Assembly: GCA_951813565.1 (NCBI GenBank)
Contig: OX638351.1
Location: 4,960,001-5,024,000 of the forward strand
Direction of reading: 5' to 3'
Length of the DNA: 64,000 nucleotides
Source of the DNA: an uncultured Poribacteria bacterium
Lineage (GTDB): Bacteria > Poribacteria > WGA-4E > WGA-3G
The notes beneath the pieces were generated by a model. It was not told the origin of the DNA. It did no database searches and was given only the letters and a program-made list of their open reading frames with translations. This document shows positions 46,478 through 59,954 of the stretch, piece after piece. Position 1 is the stretch's first letter, and each line of letters starts with the position of its first letter. The translations under genes were made by a program, and so were the position numbers.

Positions 46478-46543
46478 AACATAGTAGGCACGCATTGCGT
46501 GCCTAATCACATAAAAAATTTATACGAAAAGAGAGAAAGAATT

Positions 46544-47299
46544 ATGCCAATTAATCAATCCATCTGTTTTGGTGGTTTCCGGCGCGACAGGGAGCCGGAA
46601 GATGTAATTAAAAAAGCAGCTGAAATCGGCTACAAATCGGTTGAGATGCTGCCTGCCGATCTCTGGTCCGTTGTTCAAGATCACGGAATGCGGGTTGCAA
46701 TCATCGTTGGGCATTCGTCCCTTCCGTCTGGCTTGAACGATCCGAGCAATCATGACCGGATTGAGGATGAACTGCTCAAAAATATTGACATTGCAGCAGA
46801 TAACGACATTCCCGGTCTTATCTGTTTTTCTGGTAACCGAGAAGGCAGGTCTGACGAGGAAGGTCGTGATAACACAATAGCCGGTTTGTCGCGTGTAACG
46901 AAAGCTGCTGAGGAGAAGGGCGTTAACTTGTGCGTTGAACTGCTCAATAGCAAAGTGAACCATCCCGATTATCAATGTGATAAGACAGAGTGGGGTGTTG
47001 AAGTGTGTAAAGGTGTCGGTTCACCGCGGGCACAGCTACTCCACGACATCTATCACATGCAGATTATGGAAGGTGATCTTATCCGCAACATTACGGATTA
47101 TATTGAATATATCGGGCATTTCCACACAGCTGGCAATCCTGGGCGTCGCGACCTTGATGACGAACAGGAAATCTATTATCCTGCTGTGATGCGTGCTATT
47201 GCTAACACAGACTATGACCTATATGTAGGGCACGAGTTTAGTCCGAAAGGTGATGCGTTTGATGCGATGCAGCACGCTTATGATGTGTGTAATGTTTAG
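46544..47299 (+). CDS. Hydroxypyruvate isomerase family TIM-barrel protein
   Basis: ICFSGNR, VELLNSKVNHPDY, DIYHMQIMEGD and HFHTAGNPGR motifs. Confidence 0.88.
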   Translation: MPINQSICFGGFRRDREPEDVIKKAAEIGYKSVEMLPADLWSVVQDHGMRVAIIVGHSSLPSGLNDPSNHDRIEDELLKNIDIAADNDIPGLICFSGNREGRSDEEGRDNTIAGLSRVTKAAEEKGVNLCVELLNSKVNHPDYQCDKTEWGVEVCKGVGSPRAQLLHDIYHMQIMEGDLIRNITDYIEYIGHFHTAGNPGRRDLDDEQEIYYPAVMRAIANTDYDLYVGHEFSPKGDAFDAMQHAYDVCNV

Positions 47300-47355
47300 G
47301 CTATTTAGAGATTGTGGGCGGGTTTCAATGTCCGTCCACGCTAATTATATCTAAA

Positions 47356-49773
47356 ATGACAACCGAAGCCGAAGCACGTCAAATCATAGATAGCATGCTG
47401 GAAGAGTCTGGATGGCAGATTCAAAATTATGCTGAACGTGCAACAGATGCTTCTCTTGGTGTTGCTGTCCGTGAATATCCGTTAAGGTTTAATCAGAGAG
47501 CAGATTACCTTCTCTTTATCGGTGGCGTGGCAGTTGGCGTTATAGAAGCCAAATCAGAAGGAACAACACTTAGTGGAGCCCTCCAACAAGCAGAACGGTA
47601 TCGAGCAAATTTGCCAAATGATTTGCCCAACCGCACCAGATTTTTCTATTCTTATGCGTCAACAGGGATTGAGACATACTTTCGTGATTTTCGAGACCCG
47701 GATTCACGTTCTCGACAAGTCTTTATATTTCATACACCTCAAGCACTTTTTAATGCTTTCAATCAACCTCAAACGTTGCGAGAGAGACTCAAAACAGGGA
47801 TGCTGCCATTAAAAAAAGACAACTTGAGAGTTTGTCAATTTGAGGCGATAAGGCAGCTTGAGAGATCTTTGGCAGAAGCACGTCAGCGTGCTTTAATTCA
47901 GATGGCAACAGGCAGCGGAAAAACTTATGTCGCTGTCAGCAGTGTATACCGACTCATCAAATTTGCTAACGTCAAACGGGTTATTTTTCTGGTAGACCGT
48001 AACAATCTCGGTAGACAAGCTCTGCGTGAGTTTCAAAATTACACGACTCCCGATGATGGCAGGAAATTTACTGAACTCTACAACGTTCAACACCTTTCCA
48101 GCAATGTTATTGACGAAACAAGCTCGGTTTGTATTACCACTATCCAACGTCTTTACGCAATGTTGACAGGTGAACCCGACTATGAATCGGACGATGAGGA
48201 AAGTTCCGATTTTGAACAGGAAACTGAAGATTCACCTCCACAAGAAGTTGTCTATAATCCGAACATTCCTATTGATACGTTTGACCTTATCATCGTTGAT
48301 GAATGTCACCGCTCTATCTACGGTAAGTGGCGGCACGTATTAGAATACTTTGACGCTTTCATTCTCGGTCTCACTGCTACGCCATATAACCAAACGCTCA
48401 ATTTTTTCAATCAGAATCTTGTTTATGAATACCGTCACGAACAGGCTATTCAAGACGATGTAAATGTCGGTTATTATGTCTATCGGATTAAGACTGAAAT
48501 TACAGAAAGTGGTAGCACAGTTGCGGAGGGGAGTTATGTTGCAAGACGGGATAGGGTTAGTCGAAGACTTACCTGGGAGGAGTTGGATGAAGATGAAGAA
48601 TACACAGGAAATCAGTTAGACCGGGAGGTTGTGGCAGAAGACCAGATTCGGACAGTTATTCAGACTTTCAAGGATAAACTCAGGACAGAACTCTTTCCGA
48701 GTAGGACGATTGTTCCCAAAACACTTATCTTTGCAAAAGACGACTCGCATGCCGAGGATATTGTCAAAATTGTTCGGGAGGTATTTGCCAAAGGCGATGA
48801 TTTCTGCCAAAAGATTACCTACCAGAGCGATAGACCGGAAGACCTTATCAGAAGATTCCGCACAGACCCGATTTTCCGAATCGCTGTGAGCGTTGATATG
48901 ATTTCTACTGGCACCGATATTAAACCGCTTGAGTGTTTAGTCTTTATGCGTTCTGTCCGTTCAAGCGGGTATTTTGAGCAGATGAAGGGGCGCGGTATGC
49001 GTACTATTAAACCTGAAGATTTGCGATCTGTCACAGGTGATGCGACTGCAAAAACGCACTTCATTATTGTTGATGCTGTCGGTGTGTGTGAATCCATCAA
49101 AACTGATTCCCAGTCACGTCCAGGTGAGCCATCTTCTAATGGATCAAACGGACCACCAGAAAGAAACCCCGACCAACTCATGGATGATGTAAGCATAGAC
49201 CGTGTTATTGAAACCGGGTTTGAGCCTGAAAGTTTTGCACAAGCATCTACAGTGATCCACGACTTCAAGCGGTTTATTAATGAACACATAGCTGAATTGC
49301 CAGCGTTACAAATTTTGTGTGAACGTCCAGAAGCACAAGGCACACTGACTGAAAACAACTTAAAAGAGCTGGAAGAAGCATTGCAACAGCATTCCAGCAG
49401 TCTCAGTCGTGAGTCATTATGGATGGCTTATAAAAGACGGTCACCAGAGAACGTTCATGGAACCACAAAACGACGGACAGACCTTATATCACTGGTGCGT
49501 TTTGCCATGGGGTATACTCGTATTTTAGAACCGTTTAGTGCAATCGTCACCCGACATTTTGGAGAATGGTTAGAGGGTAAAGATTTCACACCAGAACAAG
49601 TCAACTGGCTTGAATGGATTCAGGAATACATTGCCACATCACTCGGTTTTCGAATAACTGATTTTGAGTACACACCTTTTGCACAGCGTGGCGGTGTAGC
49701 AAGAGCCATGCAACTCTTTGGTGATGAGTTGGAGGATATGCTAAAAGATCTTACAGAGAAATTGGTTTCTTAA
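47356..49773 (+). CDS. hsdR: Type I restriction-modification restriction subunit (EcoEI/EcoAI-like)
   Basis: Nuclease motif ADYLL...VIEAK, helicase motifs MATGSGKT, FLVDR, DECH, GLTATP and QMKGRG, and a C-terminal region FT.EQ..WL..I..YI. Confidence 0.92.
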   Translation: MTTEAEARQIIDSMLEESGWQIQNYAERATDASLGVAVREYPLRFNQRADYLLFIGGVAVGVIEAKSEGTTLSGALQQAERYRANLPNDLPNRTRFFYSYASTGIETYFRDFRDPDSRSRQVFIFHTPQALFNAFNQPQTLRERLKTGMLPLKKDNLRVCQFEAIRQLERSLAEARQRALIQMATGSGKTYVAVSSVYRLIKFANVKRVIFLVDRNNLGRQALREFQNYTTPDDGRKFTELYNVQHLSSNVIDETSSVCITTIQRLYAMLTGEPDYESDDEESSDFEQETEDSPPQEVVYNPNIPIDTFDLIIVDECHRSIYGKWRHVLEYFDAFILGLTATPYNQTLNFFNQNLVYEYRHEQAIQDDVNVGYYVYRIKTEITESGSTVAEGSYVARRDRVSRRLTWEELDEDEEYTGNQLDREVVAEDQIRTVIQTFKDKLRTELFPSRTIVPKTLIFAKDDSHAEDIVKIVREVFAKGDDFCQKITYQSDRPEDLIRRFRTDPIFRIAVSVDMISTGTDIKPLECLVFMRSVRSSGYFEQMKGRGMRTIKPEDLRSVTGDATAKTHFIIVDAVGVCESIKTDSQSRPGEPSSNGSNGPPERNPDQLMDDVSIDRVIETGFEPESFAQASTVIHDFKRFINEHIAELPALQILCERPEAQGTLTENNLKELEEALQQHSSSLSRESLWMAYKRRSPENVHGTTKRRTDLISLVRFAMGYTRILEPFSAIVTRHFGEWLEGKDFTPEQVNWLEWIQEYIATSLGFRITDFEYTPFAQRGGVARAMQLFGDELEDMLKDLTEKLVS

Positions 49774-49912
49774 TTCTGCTTTTTAATAGGCACCTCTGGG
49801 CGCGATTGCTTGTCTAAAACGCTTGAATTCGCATACAGTTTGTGCTAAAATAAAAACTGTGCGGTGTCTGTTTTATCACAATTTTGAAAACACGTCAGAG
49901 AGGTATCTGAAA

Positions 49913-52900
49913 ATGCCAACACCAACACCAAAAGAGGTTTTTGATAATCCTTTACAATATCTTAATTTCCTACAATCCGACAAATTTGAAGGGCAATATT
50001 TCGAGCGGAATGAGGTCCGGCTTGAGAAAAACCAGATTAATGTGTTGAAAGATAGCATTAAGCCTTGTCTATCTGCATTCGCAAATACAAACAAAGAGGG
50101 AGGATTAGTTGTCCTGGGTATTGCTAACGACGGTACTATCAAAGGGATTCAGCACGTTGATGAACAGAAACTTAACGAAATATTGCAAGTTAGAGAATCT
50201 TTAAAAAACCACGTGACGGATCCAAAACATGTCAGTCTGCAAGATCCTAATAAGAACCAATTATATCTTTTATATACACATGAGACACCAAATGCAATTT
50301 GTGAAACAACAGGAGTTTTTCCAAAAGCTTGGAAAAGAGTTGGACCTCAGAATCGTCCTATGACTGAACAAGAACGGGATCAGTTAAAACGGAACAAAAA
50401 AATAGTTGATTTTGAGAACACCTATTGCTGTCCGCACGATCCTAATGAACTTGACGAAGGAGTGGTTGAAGAATTTAAGAAGGCTTTTCTTGAAGAGAGA
50501 GGTGCCCAGTACGGTCATAGCACCGAAGAAGTTCTATACCAAGCAGGTGCACTCATTAAAACGGAAGAAAATGGAAAATATGTGATTAACAATGCTGGTT
50601 ATCTATTTTTTTCCTCAAACCCTCGCAAGCGTTTTGGAAGCGCATTCGTAAGGTTACTACGTTATGATGTCCGCGCTGAAGAGTTAAGAAACCGTGGCGG
50701 AATGACTTTAGATAAAGATTTTGACGGTCCTCTTCCAAACATTATTCGTGGCCTTCGGAGCTTTTTAAAAGATTCCGCACTTTTTCGGATTTTGTCAAAA
50801 CGGAATCCTGATGGTGGATTCACTGATGAACCCGAATTTCCTTTCATAGCAGTTGATGAAGCACTCGTTAACGCCATTGTACATAGAGAATATGCTGTTA
50901 CTACACCAATTTTCTGTATTGTTTATAGAGATAAATTGGAAGTTAGAAATCCAGGAGACATACCACAGTCTGTTCCTAAGAAATTTAGTCTTGATGAACA
51001 AAGCTTAGACCCTGTGCCTCGGAATCCGAAAATTGTTGAGTGGATGCGTATCATGAAAGATGAGAGAGGTTCCATTTTTGTTCATGGATTGAGTGAAGGT
51101 ACTAGACGAATGAAGGAAGAGATGGAAAATTTGGGATTACCGGCTCCACACTATCATACAGATCAATACACAACCGTCACACTCTACAGTAAATTTGATG
51201 AACGCTTGGAAAAGTATACTCTAAAAACGGTCACTGAAACACAAGAATATGCTAATCTTTTTCCAATTGAACAGTCAAGAGAAAGAATGTCACGAAGCGA
51301 ATTTATAGAAGTTCGTGGAAATATACTCACAGCGATTAAAGACGCGCTCTTAAACCACGGATGGTTTATAGACCGTTTTTCATTTGGTCGCATCGTTGCC
51401 CATCGACAAGGTACATCCTTGTCCCTATCTCCTCAAGTTAAAGCTGTTGTACAAATATATCCAGCGTATGAATTACAAATTAGACAGTACGCTGAAGATC
51501 TCTATCTATGTGTTGATTACAAAGCTGAGTTGAAAAATATTCTGAAAGTAGGCTCTTTGCTTGATTACTTTACTGTTGATGATTTAGTTGGTAAACATGC
51601 TGTGGCAAAATACTCTGGACAATGGGAACGCGGAGAAATCTTAGAAATCGACTCGGAAACTACTAAATTAGCATTGTCTGATTTAGACACGGAAGTGAAT
51701 ATTCCAAATAATGATGTTATTCCATCCATTGGGAAAACTGCAATTAAAAAGATTTTGACAAAGAAAAACATAGCTCACGATCTTGATCAAAAAATTAAGG
51801 AACACGCTTTAGTGTCGCAGAGGAATGCTGCTAAAACCCGCGCTGAAAAAACTATCAGGATCGTTCAACATCTTGCCGATGAAGTGTTCCCTATTACAGT
51901 CAACAACTTAACACTTAAGTTGTCTAAAATCCCAGCTTCTCTAAAAACACCTCTATCTGGAGGTTCCTCGCAAGATGTTAAGCCTCTCACTGTGTTTCAT
52001 GAATCCGAGGAACCTTCAGTTCAATTCTATAATGACAAGGTTGATGCCAACATATTAGAAGGATTAACAAAATATAGTTCTTACGATGCAGGTATAAAAG
52101 ATATTGAGTTAATCCCTATTTGTACTCCGGATCTACGTGGGGGGATGCGGCAGCTAATTGAGAGACTTAAACATGGAAAATACAAATATCGCGGTACTGA
52201 ATGGACTTTTAAGACAAAGCTAACTTATCCTAATGTCAACCCAGCACCTATAGAAGAATTTCAAAGTGAATGTGTTCGATTATTAGAAGAGAATCCTAAT
52301 TGGATAGGAAACAAAGATTTGAATCGGCTTTTCCTTGTGTATGTTCCAGAAGACAGGTTCCCAATCACCGATCTCAATTCTCCATACTACACAATTAAGG
52401 AATTTCTGTTATCTAAAGGAATTCCTGTCCAAATGGTGGACACGCCTATTCTTAAGAATCCTGATTGGAAGGATTTCAATCTTGCTTTGAACATCACTGC
52501 GAAATGCGGTGTCGTCCCTTGGGTTTTACCAGGCGCATTACCAGATGCTGATTTCTTTGTTGGTTTGTCATATACCCAACATCCTGATAGGAAAATAGAC
52601 AGACACATGGCGTTTGCTAATGTGTTCAGTAATTTTGGACGCTGGAAATTCTACCAAGGAAATGCTAAACCGTTTAATTATGATGAGAGACACGAATACT
52701 ACAAAGTACTCGTCCGATCAACGTTGGAAAGGCTTGACCTTCGCGAATCTCCATCAATACATTTTCACTACTCAGCGAAGTTTTCTGCGGAAGACATATC
52801 TGCAATTTTGGAAGCTGCAAAATTAGTTCGCCCGAATGGTAGATATACATTTGTATGGATAAATAGTTCACATATCGTTCGGTTTTACGATCCATCTCCA

Positions 52901-53254
52901 CAAACAGATGGAAGTTTACAACGTGGTAAATACGTGATTGGCTGGCCTAAACAATTCTATTTATCAACTACTGGCTATAATACTTACCATAAGTCACTTG
53001 GCACTCCCCATCCTCTTGAAGTTAATGTATGGACTGAACCTTACGATCCCTCAAATCCACCGGATCTGAGAGTTGTTGCCAAGCAATTAATCTCTCTGAC
53101 AAAGTTGAATTGGGCATCAACCCGTTCATTTTGTGGCACGCCTATCACCATAAAATACGCACGTGACATTGCCCGTTTTGCATCGGCGTTTATTGAGCGT
53201 AGCGGAAAGTTTGAACTACATGAAGTCTTGGAGAAAACCCCATGGTTCATCTAA
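49913..53254 (+). CDS. Schlafen/AlbA_2 + HATPase_c_4-like + long prokaryotic Argonaute fusion (PIWI catalytically inactive), ~1113 aa
   Basis: AlbA_2 motifs EGQYFER and LSAFANT..GGLVVLGI.NDG. HATPase_c_4-like motifs EALVNAIVHREY, LEVRNPG, RNPKI and SEGTRRM. MID motifs YYTIK, GIPVQMV and LNITAKCG. PIWI motifs PWVL...FFVGLSY, HFHYSAK, RGKY, LTKLNW and PITIKYA, ending TPWFI. GAGAGG precedes the ATG at 49913. Confidence 0.85.
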   Translation: MPTPTPKEVFDNPLQYLNFLQSDKFEGQYFERNEVRLEKNQINVLKDSIKPCLSAFANTNKEGGLVVLGIANDGTIKGIQHVDEQKLNEILQVRESLKNHVTDPKHVSLQDPNKNQLYLLYTHETPNAICETTGVFPKAWKRVGPQNRPMTEQERDQLKRNKKIVDFENTYCCPHDPNELDEGVVEEFKKAFLEERGAQYGHSTEEVLYQAGALIKTEENGKYVINNAGYLFFSSNPRKRFGSAFVRLLRYDVRAEELRNRGGMTLDKDFDGPLPNIIRGLRSFLKDSALFRILSKRNPDGGFTDEPEFPFIAVDEALVNAIVHREYAVTTPIFCIVYRDKLEVRNPGDIPQSVPKKFSLDEQSLDPVPRNPKIVEWMRIMKDERGSIFVHGLSEGTRRMKEEMENLGLPAPHYHTDQYTTVTLYSKFDERLEKYTLKTVTETQEYANLFPIEQSRERMSRSEFIEVRGNILTAIKDALLNHGWFIDRFSFGRIVAHRQGTSLSLSPQVKAVVQIYPAYELQIRQYAEDLYLCVDYKAELKNILKVGSLLDYFTVDDLVGKHAVAKYSGQWERGEILEIDSETTKLALSDLDTEVNIPNNDVIPSIGKTAIKKILTKKNIAHDLDQKIKEHALVSQRNAAKTRAEKTIRIVQHLADEVFPITVNNLTLKLSKIPASLKTPLSGGSSQDVKPLTVFHESEEPSVQFYNDKVDANILEGLTKYSSYDAGIKDIELIPICTPDLRGGMRQLIERLKHGKYKYRGTEWTFKTKLTYPNVNPAPIEEFQSECVRLLEENPNWIGNKDLNRLFLVYVPEDRFPITDLNSPYYTIKEFLLSKGIPVQMVDTPILKNPDWKDFNLALNITAKCGVVPWVLPGALPDADFFVGLSYTQHPDRKIDRHMAFANVFSNFGRWKFYQGNAKPFNYDERHEYYKVLVRSTLERLDLRESPSIHFHYSAKFSAEDISAILEAAKLVRPNGRYTFVWINSSHIVRFYDPSPQTDGSLQRGKYVIGWPKQFYLSTTGYNTYHKSLGTPHPLEVNVWTEPYDPSNPPDLRVVAKQLISLTKLNWASTRSFCGTPITIKYARDIARFASAFIERSGKFELHEVLEKTPWFI

Positions 53255-54681
53255 CTCCAATTTCTGGTGATTTGCCAAAAGGGTGGGTGTGGACAACATT
53301 AGAAGAAATTGGTGAAATCATATTAGGGCAATCCCCTCCGTCTTCTACCTACAATACAGATGGAGACGGACTCCCTTTTTATCAAGGTAAACTTGAATTC
53401 GGGAAACTCTATCCTGCACCTCGAAAATGGTGTACCGCTCCGAAGAAAATTGCTGAAAAAGGGGACGTTTTCATTTCTATTCGCGCGCCTGTAGGACCTA
53501 CAAATATTTGCCCCGAAAAATCTGCTGTGGGAAGAGGACTCGCAGCAATTCGCGGGTTAGGCGGAATTGAGTCGTTTTTCATTCTTTATTTAATGCATGC
53601 CTATGCAAATAAGATTGCAAGCAGAGGAACGGGGACAACTTTTGATGCAATTACGGGAAACCAACTTAAGACATTTGAAATCCCACTTCCACCACTGACA
53701 GAACAACGCCGCATCGTAGCCAAGTTAGAGATACTATTTACACATTTAGACGCAGCAGTTGAAAACCTCAAAAAAGCACAAGTGCAGTTGCAGCGGTATC
53801 GTCAATCAGTTCTCAAAGCTGCTTTTGAAGGGGAGTTGACGAGGGAGTGGCGAGAAGGGTATTCGGGTGAATTAGAACCGATGTCGGTTTCAGAAGTTTC
53901 TGAGATGGACAATTTACCTGAGCTGCCTGATGGTTGGGTGTGGACGAAGGTTAAGGACATTTCAGAATTTATTCGCGGTGTGTCCTATAAAAAGAATCAA
54001 TCATCTAAAACCCCAATAGATGATTATGTTCCTATATTGCGGGCGAACAATATCAATACACAATTGAACTATGAAGACCTTGTTTATGTTCAGCGAGAAA
54101 AGGTTAAAGATGAACAATTTGTAAAGATTTATGATATTATCATCGCGATGTCGAGTGGTAGTAAACACCTCGTAGGTAAAGCAGCGCAAGCTTATCAGGA
54201 TTTTGAAGGGGGTTTTGGCACTTTTTGTGGGTTGGTCAGAGTTTCGGAAGAAGTAAATAAAAAATTCATTGGTTTATTTTTCCAAAGTCCTGTTTATAGA
54301 AATGAAATATCTCGTCTCTCTATTGGAATAAACATCAATAACCTTCGGAGAGAAAACATAGAGACAATGCTTATACCGCTTCCACCGCTTGCCGAACAGG
54401 AACAGATTGTCTCTGAACTTGAGCGGCACCTTTCAGTCGCTGATGCGGCAGAGGCAACCCTTGATGCCGCACTGAAGCGCGCGGAACGTTTGCGGCAGTC
54501 TATCCTCAAACATGCGTTTTCTGGTAAACTTGTTCCGCAAGACCCGAACGATGAACCGGCAAGCGTGTTGCTTGAGAAAATCAGAGATGAGAAAGATCAG
54601 CAACAACCAAAGCGAAAAAAGACTACAACAAAATCGAAAAACACATCTTCGGCACAGCAATTGTCCCTTCCACTTGACTAA
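53242..54681 (+). CDS. hsdS: Type I restriction-modification specificity subunit
   Basis: LPKGWVW and LPDGWVW start two target-recognition domains. Conserved helices PLPPLTEQRRIV and PLPPLAEQEQIV, and AFSGKLVPQDPNDEPASVLLEKI. Confidence 0.93.
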   Translation: MVHLTPISGDLPKGWVWTTLEEIGEIILGQSPPSSTYNTDGDGLPFYQGKLEFGKLYPAPRKWCTAPKKIAEKGDVFISIRAPVGPTNICPEKSAVGRGLAAIRGLGGIESFFILYLMHAYANKIASRGTGTTFDAITGNQLKTFEIPLPPLTEQRRIVAKLEILFTHLDAAVENLKKAQVQLQRYRQSVLKAAFEGELTREWREGYSGELEPMSVSEVSEMDNLPELPDGWVWTKVKDISEFIRGVSYKKNQSSKTPIDDYVPILRANNINTQLNYEDLVYVQREKVKDEQFVKIYDIIIAMSSGSKHLVGKAAQAYQDFEGGFGTFCGLVRVSEEVNKKFIGLFFQSPVYRNEISRLSIGININNLRRENIETMLIPLPPLAEQEQIVSELERHLSVADAAEATLDAALKRAERLRQSILKHAFSGKLVPQDPNDEPASVLLEKIRDEKDQQQPKRKKTTTKSKNTSSAQQLSLPLD

Positions 54682-54800
54682 ACTAAAGTTGAAACTTCGT
54701 TTTGTTTTTAATGCAGATTTATGGTAAAATATCAATGTAAAGCAACTGTACAATCTGTTCATTAAAAGTTTTAATTTAAGTTTTTAAGGAAATATTAGAG

Positions 54801-55085
54801 ATGACACTTAAGATTACAGACTGCACGGATAGAGATGAAAAAACGCGGGAGACCGATCCGCTTCTCGCATTAGCAGGTACGCTTAAATGGAATAATATAA
54901 GTGGCCCCAACGCCGTATTGATACCGGAAATACTCGTGATTAAAGGCGCACACGAAGATCACCCGGATCCGCTCATCGCCTTGCTGGGAACGTTGGAATG
55001 TGATGTCACAGACATCGGCGAACGTCACGATGATTATATCAGAGACGCACTTTTAGCAGAATTATGGGGAAATGAAGATGAATGA
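54801..55085 (+). CDS. Small acidic antitoxin-like hypothetical protein with an internal repeat
   Basis: Repeat DPLLALAGTL / DPLIALLGTL and C-terminal DIGERHDDYI. Confidence 0.55.
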   Translation: MTLKITDCTDRDEKTRETDPLLALAGTLKWNNISGPNAVLIPEILVIKGAHEDHPDPLIALLGTLECDVTDIGERHDDYIRDALLAELWGNEDE

Positions 55086-55119
55086 GGAACTTACCTTAAA
55101 CTTGCGTAGGTGAAATAAT

Positions 55120-55533
55120 ATGAAAACTGAAGAAAAAGAACATAATCTCCCTCTACCGCCAGCAGATAAAACACTATTTCGCAAACAAGTGCAGCGCGAA
55201 TTAGACGAAATTCGACAAGAAGCTGAGGAGGCTTATACCTTGGATAACGAGATTGATCCTGTGCCGGATTCGGCTTACAATGACACGCTTGTTTTGTTAA
55301 AGTTCCTTTGTAATTACAATCTGCCCATGCCAGATTTTAGTTGGGCAGAAGATGGTAGCCTTAGTGTTGGGTGGTACCCAGATAATGGCATGGTAACAAT
55401 GGGAATATATGGGGACAATCTTGTCATCTATAATGCATTTTTTGAAGAAAAACGTCAATTTGAAGGAATCTGTGAACTGTCAGATACCGCGGTGTTGTCA
55501 GGTTTTCTCACAACGTTGGCAAATATCCTCTAA
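55120..55533 (+). CDS. Hypothetical protein, module gene A copy 1
   Basis: Paralogous to 58521-58919 and 59120-59539 (P..AYN..L.L...PMP..W.EDG....W.P...LYGD..V.Y..FF). Confidence 0.75.
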   Translation: MKTEEKEHNLPLPPADKTLFRKQVQRELDEIRQEAEEAYTLDNEIDPVPDSAYNDTLVLLKFLCNYNLPMPDFSWAEDGSLSVGWYPDNGMVTMGIYGDNLVIYNAFFEEKRQFEGICELSDTAVLSGFLTTLANIL

Positions 55534-55547
55534 TAAGGATTGTTGTT

Positions 55548-55967
55548 ATGAATGTTTCACCGGGTGAGACACTCACTCGTTTTATTCGTTATAACAGTCA
55601 TTTTTCCGTTGTAACTAACAGAGTTAAACCTGACGCTTTTCTTCCACACAGAAAGCGTATTGATGTATCCGTGTTTCGCATTTCCGAACTCAATGACAGT
55701 GAAAAACTCTCAGAAAACGAGATATGGCAAATTGGGCGGGAATATGTTCAAACAGAAGAAAGACTGATAAAGGCAAGGGCTGATCTTTTGGCTGCCGTTG
55801 TTTATCAGAATAATCTTGAAGTTGTTCCAGATGAGCCGCCTCAAAGGCACGCGAACATAACGCCTTTTCCGATAGAGAAAAGTCCTACAGACAGGAAAGC
55901 ACGTAGATCCATCGCAACGAAACTTGCTAACGCAAGTAAATTAGCTGTTCAACCAGAAAAGATATGA
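55548..55967 (+). CDS. Hypothetical protein, module gene B copy 1 (possible ART/RES-like fold)
   Basis: Paralogous to 59550-59954 (L.RFI...HFS...VK..AF.P...SVF...EIW.IGR.YVQT.ER..KARADL...L.VVPD..P..HANIT.FP). Confidence 0.75.
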   Translation: MNVSPGETLTRFIRYNSHFSVVTNRVKPDAFLPHRKRIDVSVFRISELNDSEKLSENEIWQIGREYVQTEERLIKARADLLAAVVYQNNLEVVPDEPPQRHANITPFPIEKSPTDRKARRSIATKLANASKLAVQPEKI

Positions 55968-55996
55968 TTTCAGTACGATCAAATTGAGATACACAC

Positions 55997-57463
55997 ATGT
56001 CCAACGAATCCACAACAATCGTTCAAAAACTATGGAATTTCTGCAATGTGCTCCGAGATGATGGGGTCAGTTACGGAGATTACGTGGAGCAACTCACGTA
56101 TCTGCTTTTTCTCAAACTCGCTGATGAACAGCGCAACCTACCTACTAACACATCAACTCAAATCCCTGCTGGTTTGGATTGGGAAAGTTTACTCAAAGAG
56201 AGTGGTGCTGCGTTAGAAGAGCAGTATGTTAAAACCCTTCGTGAATTGAGTAATGAGAAAGGGTTGCTTGGTGTTATTTTTAGAAAATCGCAAAACCGCA
56301 TTCAGACACCCGCGCACCTCCAACGACTTATCAAGCTTATTGATGCCGAAAACTGGAGCGGAATGGCAGCCGATGTCAAAGGCACAATTTACGAGGGACT
56401 TTTACAGAAAAACGCTGAAGACACCAAAAGCGGTGCAGGGCAGTACTTCACACCTCGTCCACTCATCAAAGCGATAGTAGCTGTAATGCAACCTAAACCG
56501 ATGAAAACGATCTGCGATCCTGCATGCGGCACAGGCGGTTTTTTCCTCGCTGCTTATGAGTATATATCCGAAACATATCGCACAACATTAACTCGTGAAC
56601 AGAAGAAGTTCCTCAGATTTGATACTTTCGCCGGAACAGACATCGTTGATAACGTAGTCCGTCTCTGTGTTATGAATCTATATCTGCACGGTATTGATGG
56701 GGAGGAAAGTCCAATTACAACCAACGATAGTCTCGGCAAAGATCCGGGAGAACGTTACGATATGGTGCTGACCAATCCACCGTTTGGTAACAAGAGTAGT
56801 GTTACAATCACTACTGATGGCGAAAAACGTAGCAACGCATCCGTCACGTATGAACGCGATGATTTTTGGGCGACAACTTCAAATAAACAGTTTAACTTCC
56901 TACAGCACATTAAGACAATTTTGAAGGAAAATGGTCGCGCCGCTGTGGTACTACCTGATAACGTTCTCTTTGAACGTGGCGCGGGTGAAACAATTCGCAG
57001 GCAACTGCTAAAACTGTTTGATGTCCATACCTTGTTACGATTGCCTACTGGTATTTTCTACGCGCAAGGTGTAAAGGCAAACGTTCTCTTTTTCGACAAA
57101 CGTCCGGCACGTGAGGAACCGTGGACACAAAAACTTTGGATATACGATCTCCGTACAAATAAACGTTTTACGCTTAAGACGAATCCCTTACGCGATGCCG
57201 ACCTACAGGATTTTATTACTGCCTATAATCCAAAGAACCGTCACGAACGGGTTGAAACTGAACGTTTTCACGCCTTCACTTACGAGGAACTTACCAAGCG
57301 GGAACATGTTAACCTTGATATTTTCTGGTTGAAAGAGGATTCACTTGAAGATATAGCAGACCTTCCCACGCCTGATGTATTAGCGGGGGAAATCACACAG
57401 AATTTAGAGACTGCTTTGGGATTGTTTCAGAATATTCAGACAGAATTAGGTGACAGTGACTAA
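55997..57463 (+). CDS. hsdM: Type I restriction-modification N6-adenine methyltransferase
   Basis: KLWNFCNVLRDDG, GQYFTPR, DPACGTGGF, LTNPPFG and LRLPTGIFYAQGVKAN motifs. Confidence 0.95.
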   Translation: MSNESTTIVQKLWNFCNVLRDDGVSYGDYVEQLTYLLFLKLADEQRNLPTNTSTQIPAGLDWESLLKESGAALEEQYVKTLRELSNEKGLLGVIFRKSQNRIQTPAHLQRLIKLIDAENWSGMAADVKGTIYEGLLQKNAEDTKSGAGQYFTPRPLIKAIVAVMQPKPMKTICDPACGTGGFFLAAYEYISETYRTTLTREQKKFLRFDTFAGTDIVDNVVRLCVMNLYLHGIDGEESPITTNDSLGKDPGERYDMVLTNPPFGNKSSVTITTDGEKRSNASVTYERDDFWATTSNKQFNFLQHIKTILKENGRAAVVLPDNVLFERGAGETIRRQLLKLFDVHTLLRLPTGIFYAQGVKANVLFFDKRPAREEPWTQKLWIYDLRTNKRFTLKTNPLRDADLQDFITAYNPKNRHERVETERFHAFTYEELTKREHVNLDIFWLKEDSLEDIADLPTPDVLAGEITQNLETALGLFQNIQTELGDSD

Positions 57464-57613
57464 ACTACGTTACTGTCTGTTTTTAAGTGAAAACATAGGG
57501 AGAGGATATTGACAAAAGACTAAATTTCGGAGACGTTTTGTGCAGAATTATATTCTTGTAACCAATAACGTCTCCACGACCTTTACTTTTGAAAACCTAA
57601 GGAGGAATTCAAA

Positions 57614-58432
57614 ATGCGCAATCAACTTACACTGACACTCTTCACCCTTATCATTGCTGTCCTTTTCTGTTCTATTGCAGTAGCAAGTTTGCAAAATGGG
57701 TTAATTGTCTATTATCCATTTGATGAAGCAGATGGAAAAACAGCGTCTGATAAAAGCAAAAACAACAATGATGCGGAACTTATGGGTAACGCCGCTTGGG
57801 CACCTAAGGAAGGTAAAATTGGCGGTGCCATCAGATTTGATGGTGGTGATAGTTCTGCTGTAGACGAAAACGGTGCAGATTATATCAATGAACTTGAGGC
57901 TTTTACCATCTCTGTTTGGGTAAAATCTGATTCAGTTGGACACGACAGAGGTATTGTCTTTGCTATAGACCCCGATGGAGGCGATAATGTTTTCGGTTTA
58001 CGCTACGATGCCGCAAGTTGGTCCACAAAGGGTGGGACAAATCTTCTCAAAGGCGCGATTACGACAACGGGCGGCGGTCAAGCGTATGAGGGTAAAAGCG
58101 ATGTGCAAACAACTGAGTGGCAATACCTCGCGTTTACTTGGAAAAGTGGTGAACAACTTGCCCTTTATATTGATGGTGAACTTGATGATAATCCTACACA
58201 CAATGATGGTGGAAAAGAGGGTAAAATTTCTGGTGCCACCAAATTAATCGTAGGTAAAGGTGCTAAAGATAATAATGGCACCTCATGGCCCGGTCTCATT
58301 GACGACTTTCGACTCTACGATAGAGTTTTAGAGGCGAGAGAGATTTCAGATTTAGCTTCAGGTGTCCTACCAGTTGAACCGGCTGGAAAGCTAGCAACGA
58401 CTTGGGCGAACTTTAAGCAAAAACGAAATTAA
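57614..58432 (+). CDS. Secreted LamG domain protein
   Basis: Signal peptide, YYPFDE..GKTASD, FTISVWVK, WQYLAFTW, LYIDG, IDDFRLYDRVL and C-terminal VEPAGKLATTWANFK. Confidence 0.88.
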   Translation: MRNQLTLTLFTLIIAVLFCSIAVASLQNGLIVYYPFDEADGKTASDKSKNNNDAELMGNAAWAPKEGKIGGAIRFDGGDSSAVDENGADYINELEAFTISVWVKSDSVGHDRGIVFAIDPDGGDNVFGLRYDAASWSTKGGTNLLKGAITTTGGGQAYEGKSDVQTTEWQYLAFTWKSGEQLALYIDGELDDNPTHNDGGKEGKISGATKLIVGKGAKDNNGTSWPGLIDDFRLYDRVLEAREISDLASGVLPVEPAGKLATTWANFKQKRN

Positions 58433-58520
58433 TCGGTCTATGTGTTCTAAATAAGCAGTCGCGTCTTCATCTGGTAGAGACATTGAGGCGCGCCTGCATA
58501 GTAATAGGTTGGTAAAAATT

Positions 58521-58919
58521 ATGCAATTACATCTTGAGATGCCGCAGGCAGATGAGGGGACGTTCCGATATAGTATCAAACGCGAATTAGCGGAACTATA
58601 TAAAAAAGAAGATGGAGTGTATGCAAAGGATAGCATAATTGATGCTATGCCTGAGTCAGCATATAATGATGCCCTCTTTTTGCTTGAGTTTCTTTTTAAT
58701 TCGGGTGTTCCTATGCCAAACATCAATCGGACAAAACACGGTAGCCTCAGCTTAAGTTGGTATCCTGAAGAAGGTACAGCGAAGATGGAACTCTGTGGTG
58801 ATGGACTTGTTGTCTATAATGCATTTTTCGATGAAGATCGTCAGGATGAAGGTGCTTGTGTTTTGACAGATATTGCTGCGCTGGATGAACTTCTTGGCGC
58901 GTTGCGCTGCGTTTTTTGA
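58521..58919 (+). CDS. Hypothetical protein, module gene A copy 2 (no partner B)
   Basis: PESAYNDALFLL...VPMPNI...HGSLSLSWYP...GDGLVVYNAFF. Confidence 0.65.
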   Translation: MQLHLEMPQADEGTFRYSIKRELAELYKKEDGVYAKDSIIDAMPESAYNDALFLLEFLFNSGVPMPNINRTKHGSLSLSWYPEEGTAKMELCGDGLVVYNAFFDEDRQDEGACVLTDIAALDELLGALRCVF

Positions 58920-58939
58920 TAATAGCGTTTTATTAGCTT

Positions 58940-59074
58940 TATAGCGGATTCTACAATTAACTGGACATCTGAGCTGTCCGAGGGAACTCCGATTCCCGAC
59001 TAACAGTGGTTTCGTCGCGATTCGGAGATCGCTCCTACAGAATATATGTGAACTTATTTACATAATTTACTATA
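58940..59074. mobile_element. MITE-like element with TATAG-starting ends, carrying two REP palindromes
   Basis: The left end TATAGCGGATTCTACAATTAACTGGACA matches the right-end reverse complement of the 8938-9144 element. The right end is ...ATAATTTACTATA. Interior contains GAGGGAACTCCGATTCCCGA and TCGGAGATCGCTCCTAC. Confidence 0.55.
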
Positions 59075-59119
59075 ATGTTGTTGCGGATGTTACAATGATG
59101 ATCATATAGGTGACACACT

Positions 59120-59539
59120 ATGGATACCTCACACTCACAAAAAGAACCTGATTTTGCTCGGTCCCCTGCTGACAAGATACTGTTTCTAAAACATGTCCAA
59201 AGCGAATTAGGCGAAATTCGTGAGGAAGTTGAAGAAACTTGTGCAGTGACTACCGACGTTATACCTGTACCGGAACAGGCTTATAATAATACATTATCTT
59301 TGATGGAACAGATGCCCGATGACATACCGATGCCAGACATGATGTGGTTGGAAGATGGTGGTATTGGATTAGAATGGAGGCCAGGAGAAGGTATCGCAAC
59401 AATAAGTCTATACGGTGACGGAAACGTTATTTACGGTATTTTTTTTAGTGATAAGTGTGAGACTAGTGGAATCTGTGCCTTGTCAAACTATGCACTTCTC
59501 CATGGATTTCTTACGACGTTAAGCCTACTCTTTCAATAA
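59120..59539 (+). CDS. Hypothetical protein, module gene A copy 3
   Basis: PADKILFLKHVQSELGEIREE...PEQAYNNTL...PMPDMMWLEDGGIGLEWRP...GFLTTL. Confidence 0.75.
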   Translation: MDTSHSQKEPDFARSPADKILFLKHVQSELGEIREEVEETCAVTTDVIPVPEQAYNNTLSLMEQMPDDIPMPDMMWLEDGGIGLEWRPGEGIATISLYGDGNVIYGIFFSDKCETSGICALSNYALLHGFLTTLSLLFQ

Positions 59540-59549
59540 AGGATACGGT

Positions 59550-59954
59550 ATGGATTTATCGAGAGGCGATATTCTTAGTCGCTTCATTTTTTCTAAAAGA
59601 CACTTTTCAATAGAAAATTCGACTGTCAAATATGGAGCATTTATTCCGCCTCCAAATAGTGCTGATTTATCTGTGTTTTCTGTTTCATCCCTTACTAACA
59701 GCGAAATATGGGAAATCGGACGTAAATATGTCCAAACGAATGAAAGAAAACTAAAGGCAAGAGCCGATCTTCCTGTTGAAAAAGTTTATGCTGTTAATCT
59801 AAAAGTTGTCCCAGATACTCAACCTCACGAACTACATGCCAATATCACATCTTTTCCATTAGACAAGAGGGAGCGTACTGATCTTGCAAGAAAACTTGCA
59901 GTCGTTAGTAGGTTGGAAATTATACCACCTGAAGATACTGATTCTGATCGTTAA
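59550..59954 (+). CDS. Hypothetical protein, module gene B copy 2
   Basis: LSRFIFSKRHFS...AFIPP...LSVFSV...EIWEIGRKYVQTNERKLKARADL...HANITSFP. Confidence 0.75.
   Translation: MDLSRGDILSRFIFSKRHFSIENSTVKYGAFIPPPNSADLSVFSVSSLTNSEIWEIGRKYVQTNERKLKARADLPVEKVYAVNLKVVPDTQPHELHANITSFPLDKRERTDLARKLAVVSRLEIIPPEDTDSDR

Follow-up and report, generated by a model that had tools for sequence, protein, structure and literature searches.

Does an Argonaute encoded inside a type I restriction-modification (RM) operon depend on the RM enzyme, or do the two defend the cell separately? The question is raised by a stretch of 64,000 nucleotides (nt) from an uncultured Poribacteria bacterium (GenBank assembly GCA_951813565.1, contig OX638351.1, positions 4,960,001 to 5,024,000; hereafter "the window"), in which hsdR, a gene fusing Schlafen (SLFN), GHKL ATPase, and prokaryotic Argonaute (pAgo) domains, hsdS, three small genes, and hsdM follow one another in the same orientation on the + strand (47356-57463). 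The initial annotation had described this co-orientation correctly and had proposed a dedicated, coupled RM-Argonaute system. Our comparisons do not sustain such coupling and instead favor, with a probability of roughly two in three, the view that the pAgo would be a co-transcribed, autonomous passenger, with the RM and pAgo defences layered but independent. This view is taken because (i) the characterized family member RzAgo, from Runella zeae, protects alone, (ii) a pAgo occupies 6 of 45 orthologous operon slots, and (iii) an intact pAgo persists in a genome (G022) whose corresponding chromosomal site is devoid of hsd genes.

By sequence, the window fusion is a member of the SLFN-pAgo family, for which Kuzmenko et al. 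(bioRxiv 10.64898/2026.05.29.728809), as far as the accessible text goes, defined 78 proteins of 1071-1187 amino acids (aa). The assignment follows from a PADLOC model, Pfam domains, motif residues, and fold match that agree with the published definition, as does the length of 1113 aa. A Schlafen AlbA_2 domain (aa ~1-155; PF04326 at aa 44-151, 40.3 bits) is followed by a GHKL ATPase (~170-430; PF13749 at aa 334-423, 39.9 bits), both above the gathering score, and by a long-B Argonaute core (~445-1113), while the PADLOC pAgo model PDLC02394 spans aa 4-1113 (1473.6 bits). A Schlafen effector fused to an inactive long-B pAgo within a type I RM operon, as first annotated, is thus supported by Pfam and Foldseek; the ATPase between the two had been missed, as had a Lys-to-Asn change in the Schlafen motif. 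The structure model (predicted local distance difference test [pLDDT] 85.7) has as its top Foldseek match RsAgo, the long-B pAgo of Rhodobacter sphaeroides (E 5.8e-32), whose rows lead over ~790 columns with the core matched as one block, i.e., with PAZ not separately delimited. RsAgo is the best match to the core in both sequence and fold and likewise lacks the PIWI catalytic tetrad; however, it has no fused SLFN-GHKL portion, and identity is 16-17%. G884, H952, and R1084 of the window protein stand where the inactive RsAgo site aligns, positions that we take to be those of the tetrad in the PIWI fold. In addition to length, domain content, and the tetrad-less core, the window protein shares with RzAgo and its family the SAFAN box (S54-A-F-A-N58) and the catalytic ATPase pair E316 and N320, invariant in 124/124 full-length homologs and equated with RzAgo E314/N318 through spacing rather than alignment. 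Residues Y825, K829, Q840, and K864, presumably the Y-K-Q-K set of the MID 5'-guide pocket, are invariant in the same homologs. Over its full length, the window protein is 46-48% identical to named members from cyanobacteria and elsewhere, in a comparison set that did not include the RzAgo sequence itself. Unlike the family norm, the window copy carries Asn for the motif Lys.

In the accessible portion of the preprint (10.64898/2026.05.29.728809), RzAgo is reported to use 5'-A RNA guides, to bind single-stranded DNA targets, and to form inhibited filaments; on ATP it forms tetramers, cleaves tRNA, and causes abortive infection. It protects a heterologous host without five native systems, and no conserved partner was seen. 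By homology, the window Argonaute core would load small RNA guides, be held inactive as a filament, and recognize complementary invader DNA; ATP-driven GHKL tetramers would in turn switch on tRNA cleavage by the Schlafen domain, aborting the infection. RM would act first and abortive infection second, neither requiring the other. One could also envisage synergy without contact, with HsdR cutting or translocation exposing single-stranded targets to the RNA-guided pAgo. Co-expression from one operon is likely, and RzAgo-guide complexes do bind single-stranded DNA; nonetheless, RzAgo protects in the absence of a cognate RM system, and its guides are RNA, which excludes RM fragments as guides (10.64898/2026.05.29.728809). 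We regard such feeding as very improbable, and the earlier suggestion that the Argonaute senses RM-generated fragments finds no support in the guide chemistry of this family member.

The arrangement was initially thought to be undescribed. However, the preprint, in its accessible part, reports a Poribacteria operon with SLFN-pAgo and RM genes, together with two homologous operons in which SLFN-GHKL ("Schlatpase") stands alone or is fused to HsdS, and infers "a recent exchange" from the three (10.64898/2026.05.29.728809); a 2018 survey, similarly accessed, had earlier recorded long pAgos fused to Schlafen and had noted HsdS near pAgo genes (10.1101/366930). Our literature searches, in which subscription journals were thinly covered, found no paper testing RM-Argonaute coupling. 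Relative to the accessible preprint text, the present comparison adds (i) hsdS after 13/14 Poribacteria copies, (ii) loci with a stand-alone SLFN-GHKL protein and a pAgo in tandem, (iii) a second pAgo lineage in a second RM family, and (iv) a likely direction of change, from pAgo to stand-alone and fused forms, along with domain-level SLFN swapping.

A search of 112 genomes of the window's family with a cut-off of E 1e-150 recovered hsdM in 60 and hsdR in 57. Loci were fetched via SLFN-GHKL matches, plus 20 more via hsd matches, with contig-split operons mostly left out; slot tallies refer to these fetched loci, of which 67 from the family were classified and 45 contain hsdR and hsdS together. 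The operon position is constant in orthologous loci of the family, flanked by genes for a TIM-barrel protein and an NTP-transferase, and the content of the hsdR-hsdS slot changes: pAgo (3), stand-alone SLFN-GHKL without the Argonaute core ("solo") followed by pAgo (3), SLFN-GHKL-HsdS fusion (6), solo (15, as in G080), solo fragment (2), other cargo (2), or nothing (14). SLFN-type cargo therefore occupies 29/45 slots. Six genomes have solos at the operon's chromosomal site without any hsd gene there, and in a neighboring family Fic and AAA-ATPase genes also occupy the hsdR-hsdS gap. Given this varied cargo, the empty slots, and the RM-less pAgo and solos at the site, the gap is, judging from gene content, a general and fast-changing cargo position, neither partner needing the other. 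The window SLFN-pAgo would thus be a passenger in the slot of a type I RM operon that is widespread in this family of Poribacteria; the slot itself would turn over between empty, pAgo, truncated SLFN-GHKL, both, SLFN-GHKL-HsdS fusion, and unrelated cargo. In three loci (L033, L034, L037), a solo precedes a full SLFN-pAgo in one slot; solo-pAgo hetero-oligomers are conceivable there, since tetramers form through the SLFN-GHKL domains.

A gene for a tRNA nuclease plus NTPase lying between hsd genes recalls PrrC of EcoprrI-type operons, which pairs the same activities and has a HEPN nuclease; the domains are nevertheless unrelated, with SLFN and GHKL in the window protein against ABC ATPase and HEPN in PrrC, and no PrrC model was among the 24 PADLOC families matched. 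Type I RM operons often harbor embedded defence genes, 96.7% of them co-oriented, and PrrC, an ABC ATPase triggered by Stp, is found almost exclusively within type I RM, according to the accessible text of Payne et al. (10.1101/2024.01.29.577857). The window pAgo, co-oriented and nested in a multi-gene system, resembles the cargo of type I RM, BREX, DISARM, and Hma described there, although the main body of that paper, as accessed, makes no mention of Schlafen or of PDC-M32. Unlike PrrC, SLFN-pAgos mostly lie outside RM loci, and RM embedding holds only within Poribacteria. The PrrC precedent nonetheless invites a guard model, in which SLFN-GHKL would be bound to the type I complex via HsdS and unleashed upon RM inhibition; solos and HsdS fusions would use the RM enzyme as sensor, with the pAgo form being dual-input or an ancestral donor. 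This would account for the prevalence of SLFN-type cargo in the slot, for HsdS fusions in three or more places in the GHKL tree, for two independent landings before hsdS, and for the retention of catalytic residues by solos that lack a sensor (K33 in 42/42 stand-alone or HsdS-fused forms covering the site, E316 and N320 each in 45/45). Against it stand the intact solos and intact pAgo without hsd genes at the operon site in 7 genomes, solos at other sites (L049, L076, L078, L039, L040), which imply that RM is not needed for silencing, the 14/45 operons without such cargo, and two loci (L073, L077) in which the solo instead follows hsdM. Modelling HsdS (1-450) and SLFN-GHKL (1-440) as a complex returned a score of 0.00, which weighs neither for nor against contact. 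As an account of the window locus, we consider guarding unlikely; it is most plausible for the sensor-less forms, which it fits best.

Across the phylum, the full Argonaute core of the SLFN-pAgo family was found in 14 copies among 176 genomes. In 13, hsdS or an hsdS remnant starts -54 to +160 nt from the pAgo stop, and for 10 all three hsd genes lie within the fetched locus. The copies form two lineages, ~47-49% identical to each other, for which a common origin was rejected by the approximately unbiased test (p-AU 2.9e-6, 36-row tree). The second lineage resides in another type I family with the order hsdM...pAgo-hsdS...hsdR, or before an orphan hsdS after groEL; hsdM of that RM family occurs in 95/176 genomes, and in 4 of them the pAgo is its neighbor. 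The window's own genome contains a further type I RM locus of this same RM family (G000:C1 ~2097600-2108300; hsdM, an hsdS-type stretch, and hsdR). At one second-lineage locus (L045; G033:C4:2446132-2451763), near groES-groEL, the SLFN-pAgo is split by two transposase genes, with a short hsdS remnant directly after the broken gene. For comparison outside Poribacteria, the best 80 of 197 metagenome loci and one viral locus were assembled (81 in total, 68 distinct; a fragmentary viral locus was excluded) and screened with profiles from the two Poribacteria RM families. None of the 70 loci having at least 500 nt downstream has hsdS directly downstream, and type I hsd genes lie in the flanks of 3/81 (one as hsdR-pAgo-hsdM), with one additional weak helicase match. 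Viral contigs yielded one full-length SLFN-pAgo and one fragment, and plasmids one record. The initial annotation had reasoned that chance insertion into a defence island would leave homologs mostly without hsd neighbors; this describes the family outside Poribacteria and not within the phylum.

Several of these observations count against autonomy. The 13/14 copies placed directly before hsdS or its remnant exceed what random defence-island insertion would lead one to expect, and this adjacency arose in two lineages and in two RM families that differ in gene order. The fusion of SLFN-GHKL to HsdS in 6 genomes suggests at the least a tolerance of proximity to the RM complex. Flanks of at least 8 kb were available for only 30/81 outside loci, such that RM neighbors there are undercounted. 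Finally, the change at the motif Lys could mean that the window copy no longer follows the family model. The number of landings before hsdS is suggestive, comprising as it would only two independent events, but type I operons are established hot spots for nested defence genes (10.1101/2024.01.29.577857).

The motif change merits separate weighing. In the E-x4-(D/E)-x-K motif of the window Schlafen domain, E26 and E31 are kept and position 33 is Asn, leaving the motif incomplete; among the 124 full-length homologs, this position is Lys in 117, Asn in 6, and a gap in 1. The six Asn carriers are the window protein, a 99% identical record, and four proteins at 79-90% identity, and they nest among K33 proteins in the SLFN tree. 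Loss of the Lys is thus secondary in a few members and concerns activity, not descent. According to the accessible text of the respective papers, the Ex4(E/D)xK motif is conserved across bacterial Schlafens (PMC13056530), K216A renders human SLFN11 inactive, and Schlafens without one of the three residues are nuclease-deficient (PMC9482658). The Schlafen nuclease of the window copy may therefore be weak, altered, or attenuated, and the gene could even be a dead or decaying passenger, with its nuclease silenced by K33N and the gene kept for the hsdS start or for RsAgo-like interference by the core. Precedents for decay exist in the transposase-disrupted copy of G033 and in G132, where a pAgo has been lost except for its final 52 codons, which bear the hsdS start. 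On the other hand, each domain shows a ratio of nonsynonymous to synonymous substitutions (dN/dS) of 0.05-0.24 relative to four K33 orthologs, indicating purifying selection, though these values average over branches predating the change; with the nesting of N33 among K33 proteins, this leaves the gene without visible signs of decay. The GHKL and MID residues are intact, N33 is common to four other full-length proteins and the near-identical record, and K-to-N differs from K-to-A, no test of this Lys in RzAgo having been found in the accessible part of the preprint. We deem a dead passenger improbable and retain the autonomous reading with a nuclease that may be attenuated; the natural K33N allele would offer a test of what the motif Lys does in bacterial Schlafens.

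A putative internal promoter with an extended -10 TG precedes the slot and would probably drive pAgo-hsdS, and the small genes and hsdM also. Scanning for promoters and terminators alone performed at chance level (32 sites against 29.3 expected); across orthologous hsdR-downstream regions, however, a promoter-like site recurs in 32/47, including those of empty slots, whereas shuffled sequences yield 0.24 and the opposite strand 0; the search pattern was defined after an earlier result had been seen rather than beforehand. Because of this recurrence, the transcript that includes hsdS and hsdM probably begins with the slot cargo, which would be expressed along with the modification genes. At the other end, the initial annotation was accurate in placing the fusion start 139 nt past the hsdR stop (stop 49773, ATG 49913), the overlap of the fusion stop with the hsdS start (ATGGTTCATCTAA at 53242-53254), and the hsdS ribosome-binding site inside the Argonaute coding sequence (GGAG at 53230-53233). 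Empty-slot operons have the hsdS ATG immediately ahead of codons of the CTA-ACT type. In the window, the final pAgo bases stand in place of this native ATG, and the sole ATG upstream of the conserved HsdS LPxGW is the one inside pAgo. The hsdS translation start thus probably depends on the pAgo end, and the pAgo insertion, by this comparison, captured the hsdS start, a link that is genetic and not biochemical. The translational coupling first proposed accordingly stands as genetic entanglement, which has no bearing on the proteins. The overlapping ATG as an automatic by-product of an invariant P-W-F end proved only partly right, an ATG occurring at the equivalent end position in 11/66 outside pAgos.

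The GHKL tree (81 proteins, rooted on outside pAgos, without non-pAgo SLFN-GHKL proteins of other phyla) nests all 35 solos and 6 HsdS fusions within pAgo-fused sequences, in three groups, and solo C-terminal tails stop just past the linker into the Argonaute N domain. This nesting and these tails point to solos and HsdS fusions having been derived from pAgo through repeated loss of the Argonaute core. A search for further SLFN-GHKL proteins listed 120 of 167 matches, nearly all of a 55-72% group, which are not in the tree. The SLFN tree tells a different story: five well-supported pairs unite a pAgo with a solo or fusion, whereas 6/8 pAgos of the window lineage cluster apart from solos in the GHKL tree. 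Likewise, the synonymous distance between the window pAgo and that of G072 is 2.0 in SLFN against 0.5-0.9 elsewhere, and for G106 it is 0.37 against 0.6-1.0. From this conflict and these domain-specific distances, Schlafen domains are judged to have been swapped by recombination among pAgo, solo, and HsdS-fused forms. Over aa 1-150, the Schlafen portion of the window protein is 69-94% like the G065 solo, a figure that drops to 46-61% past aa 250. The drop fits recombination; an origin of the window gene by simple deletion between a tandem solo and pAgo nevertheless stays conjectural, that SLFN type being carried by other pAgos as well.

A bolder scenario, which we hold to be doubtful, joins these threads as a change of sensor: a pAgo would have landed before hsdS and shed its core repeatedly, and the freed SLFN-GHKL would have become an HsdS-wired, PrrC-like guard, joined to HsdS by direct fusion in six genomes, its SLFN domain shuffled as HsdS target domains are, changing tRNA targets. 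If true, an RM-guarded tRNase would have evolved independently from unrelated proteins, and the loci would form a natural series of an effector changing sensors. The locus constitutes a natural allelic series (empty, pAgo, solo, tandem, HsdS fusion, RM-less) that lets one test whether SLFN-pAgos, and the derivatives without a sensor, work by themselves or together with the host RM.

Table 1. Features of the window and the evidence on which each is based (aa, amino acids; ORF, open reading frame; RBS, ribosome-binding site).
Feature	Position	Strand	Basis
hsdR, type I restriction subunit, 805 aa from ATG	47356..49773	+	motifs intact
Putative internal sigma-70 promoter, TTGAAT-17-TAAAAT, extended -10 TG	49823..49851	+	pattern scan of the gap between hsdR and slot
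SLFN-pAgo, 1113 aa	49913..53254	+	PADLOC pAgo model, Pfam, structure model
Codon 33, AAT (Asn), Lys position of E-x4-(D/E)-x-K motif	50009..50011	+	alignment of homologs
hsdS RBS and ATG within last pAgo codons	53230..53254	+	sequence, comparison with empty-slot operons
hsdS, two target-recognition domains, 479 aa	53242..54681	+	Pfam Methylase_S x2
94-aa ORF, no family	54801..55085	+	homologs of 86-258 aa in many orthologous loci
sA, 137-aa ORF, no family; putative antitoxin or immunity partner of sB	55120..55533	+	gene pairing
sB, 139-aa ORF; putative toxin, probable ADP-ribosyltransferase-like fold	55548..55967	+	structure model, conserved R11, S41, H101
hsdM, N6-adenine methyltransferase, 488 aa	55997..57463	+	motifs intact
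Further sA paralogs	58509-58919, 59120-59539	+	beyond hsdM
Further sB paralog	59550-59954	+	beyond hsdM

The RM genes themselves (Table 1) retain their motifs, as first annotated and as confirmed by motif check and Pfam: HsdR (HSDR_N/ResIII/EcoEI_R_C) has D-x-E-x-K (ADYLLFIGGVAVGVIEAK at 49), Walker A, DECH, and QxxGRxxR, i.e., nuclease and DEAD-box motor; HsdM (HsdM_N/N6_Mtase) has DPACGTGG and NPPF (motifs I and IV); and HsdS has two target-recognition domains. Together these identify a type I system, with the subfamily models NCBIfam PRK11448 and EcoAI both scoring below their cut-offs. Contigs from runs X1 and X3, which come from one study and possibly from the source sample of the window, are identical to it (0 differing letters) over 46500-57940 and 47574-57955; owing to this letter-for-letter agreement, neither the GHKL domain nor the Lys-to-Asn change is an assembly error. 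In runs X4 and X5 from another study, hsdR and hsdM of a close strain were covered, with little or no depth over pAgo; no contig bridged this gap, and no inference was drawn from the low depth. The hsdR of that strain lacks one base at window 48095 (main contig, run X4).

The small genes are, by their variable number and order across loci, further cargo. The predicted sB structure (pLDDT 91.9) has leading matches to ADP-ribosyltransferase-fold proteins of moderate strength, including tRNA 2'-phosphotransferases, Tse2, and DarT (best match Z 7.0, root-mean-square deviation 2.8, 92 residues aligned), with no match at Z 8 or more in this search. As sB is preceded by sA in 34/41 cases while sA, often standing alone, is followed by sB in 34/95, the pair is a putative toxin-immunity cassette with spare immunity genes. 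Searches of a protein atlas named no family for the two small proteins, which weakly resemble the candidate PDC-M32A/B models in PADLOC: 6/32 sB homologs match PDC-M32B (best E 1.1e-6; the window ORF at 55548 does not), and the sA paralog at 59120 has a weak PDC-M32A match (E 0.0013). Around hsdM, the sA and sB genes recur in tandem arrays that vary between loci, with as many as three pairs at one locus, and orphan sA genes are numerous (L050, L077, L053); in the window's own genome, all 3 sA and both intact sB copies lie at this locus.

Elsewhere, a ~905-aa protein is encoded between hsdS and hsdM in the neighboring family's operon (L102:13269-15986, L105:5542-8256, L036:13505-16210), with no Pfam match in the two of three copies scanned. 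At another locus (L106; G130:C14:7798-10811), an unrelated 632-aa PIWI protein is encoded ahead of a SIR2-like gene and a gene with ankyrin repeats. Lastly, a ~140-nt intergenic element at window 58939-59078 has near-identical copies genome-wide (119 BLAST pieces, 41 of at least 110 nt, many 97-100% identical) and a contig depth ~30x that of its flanks, and looks like a small mobile or REP (repetitive extragenic palindromic)-type repeat.

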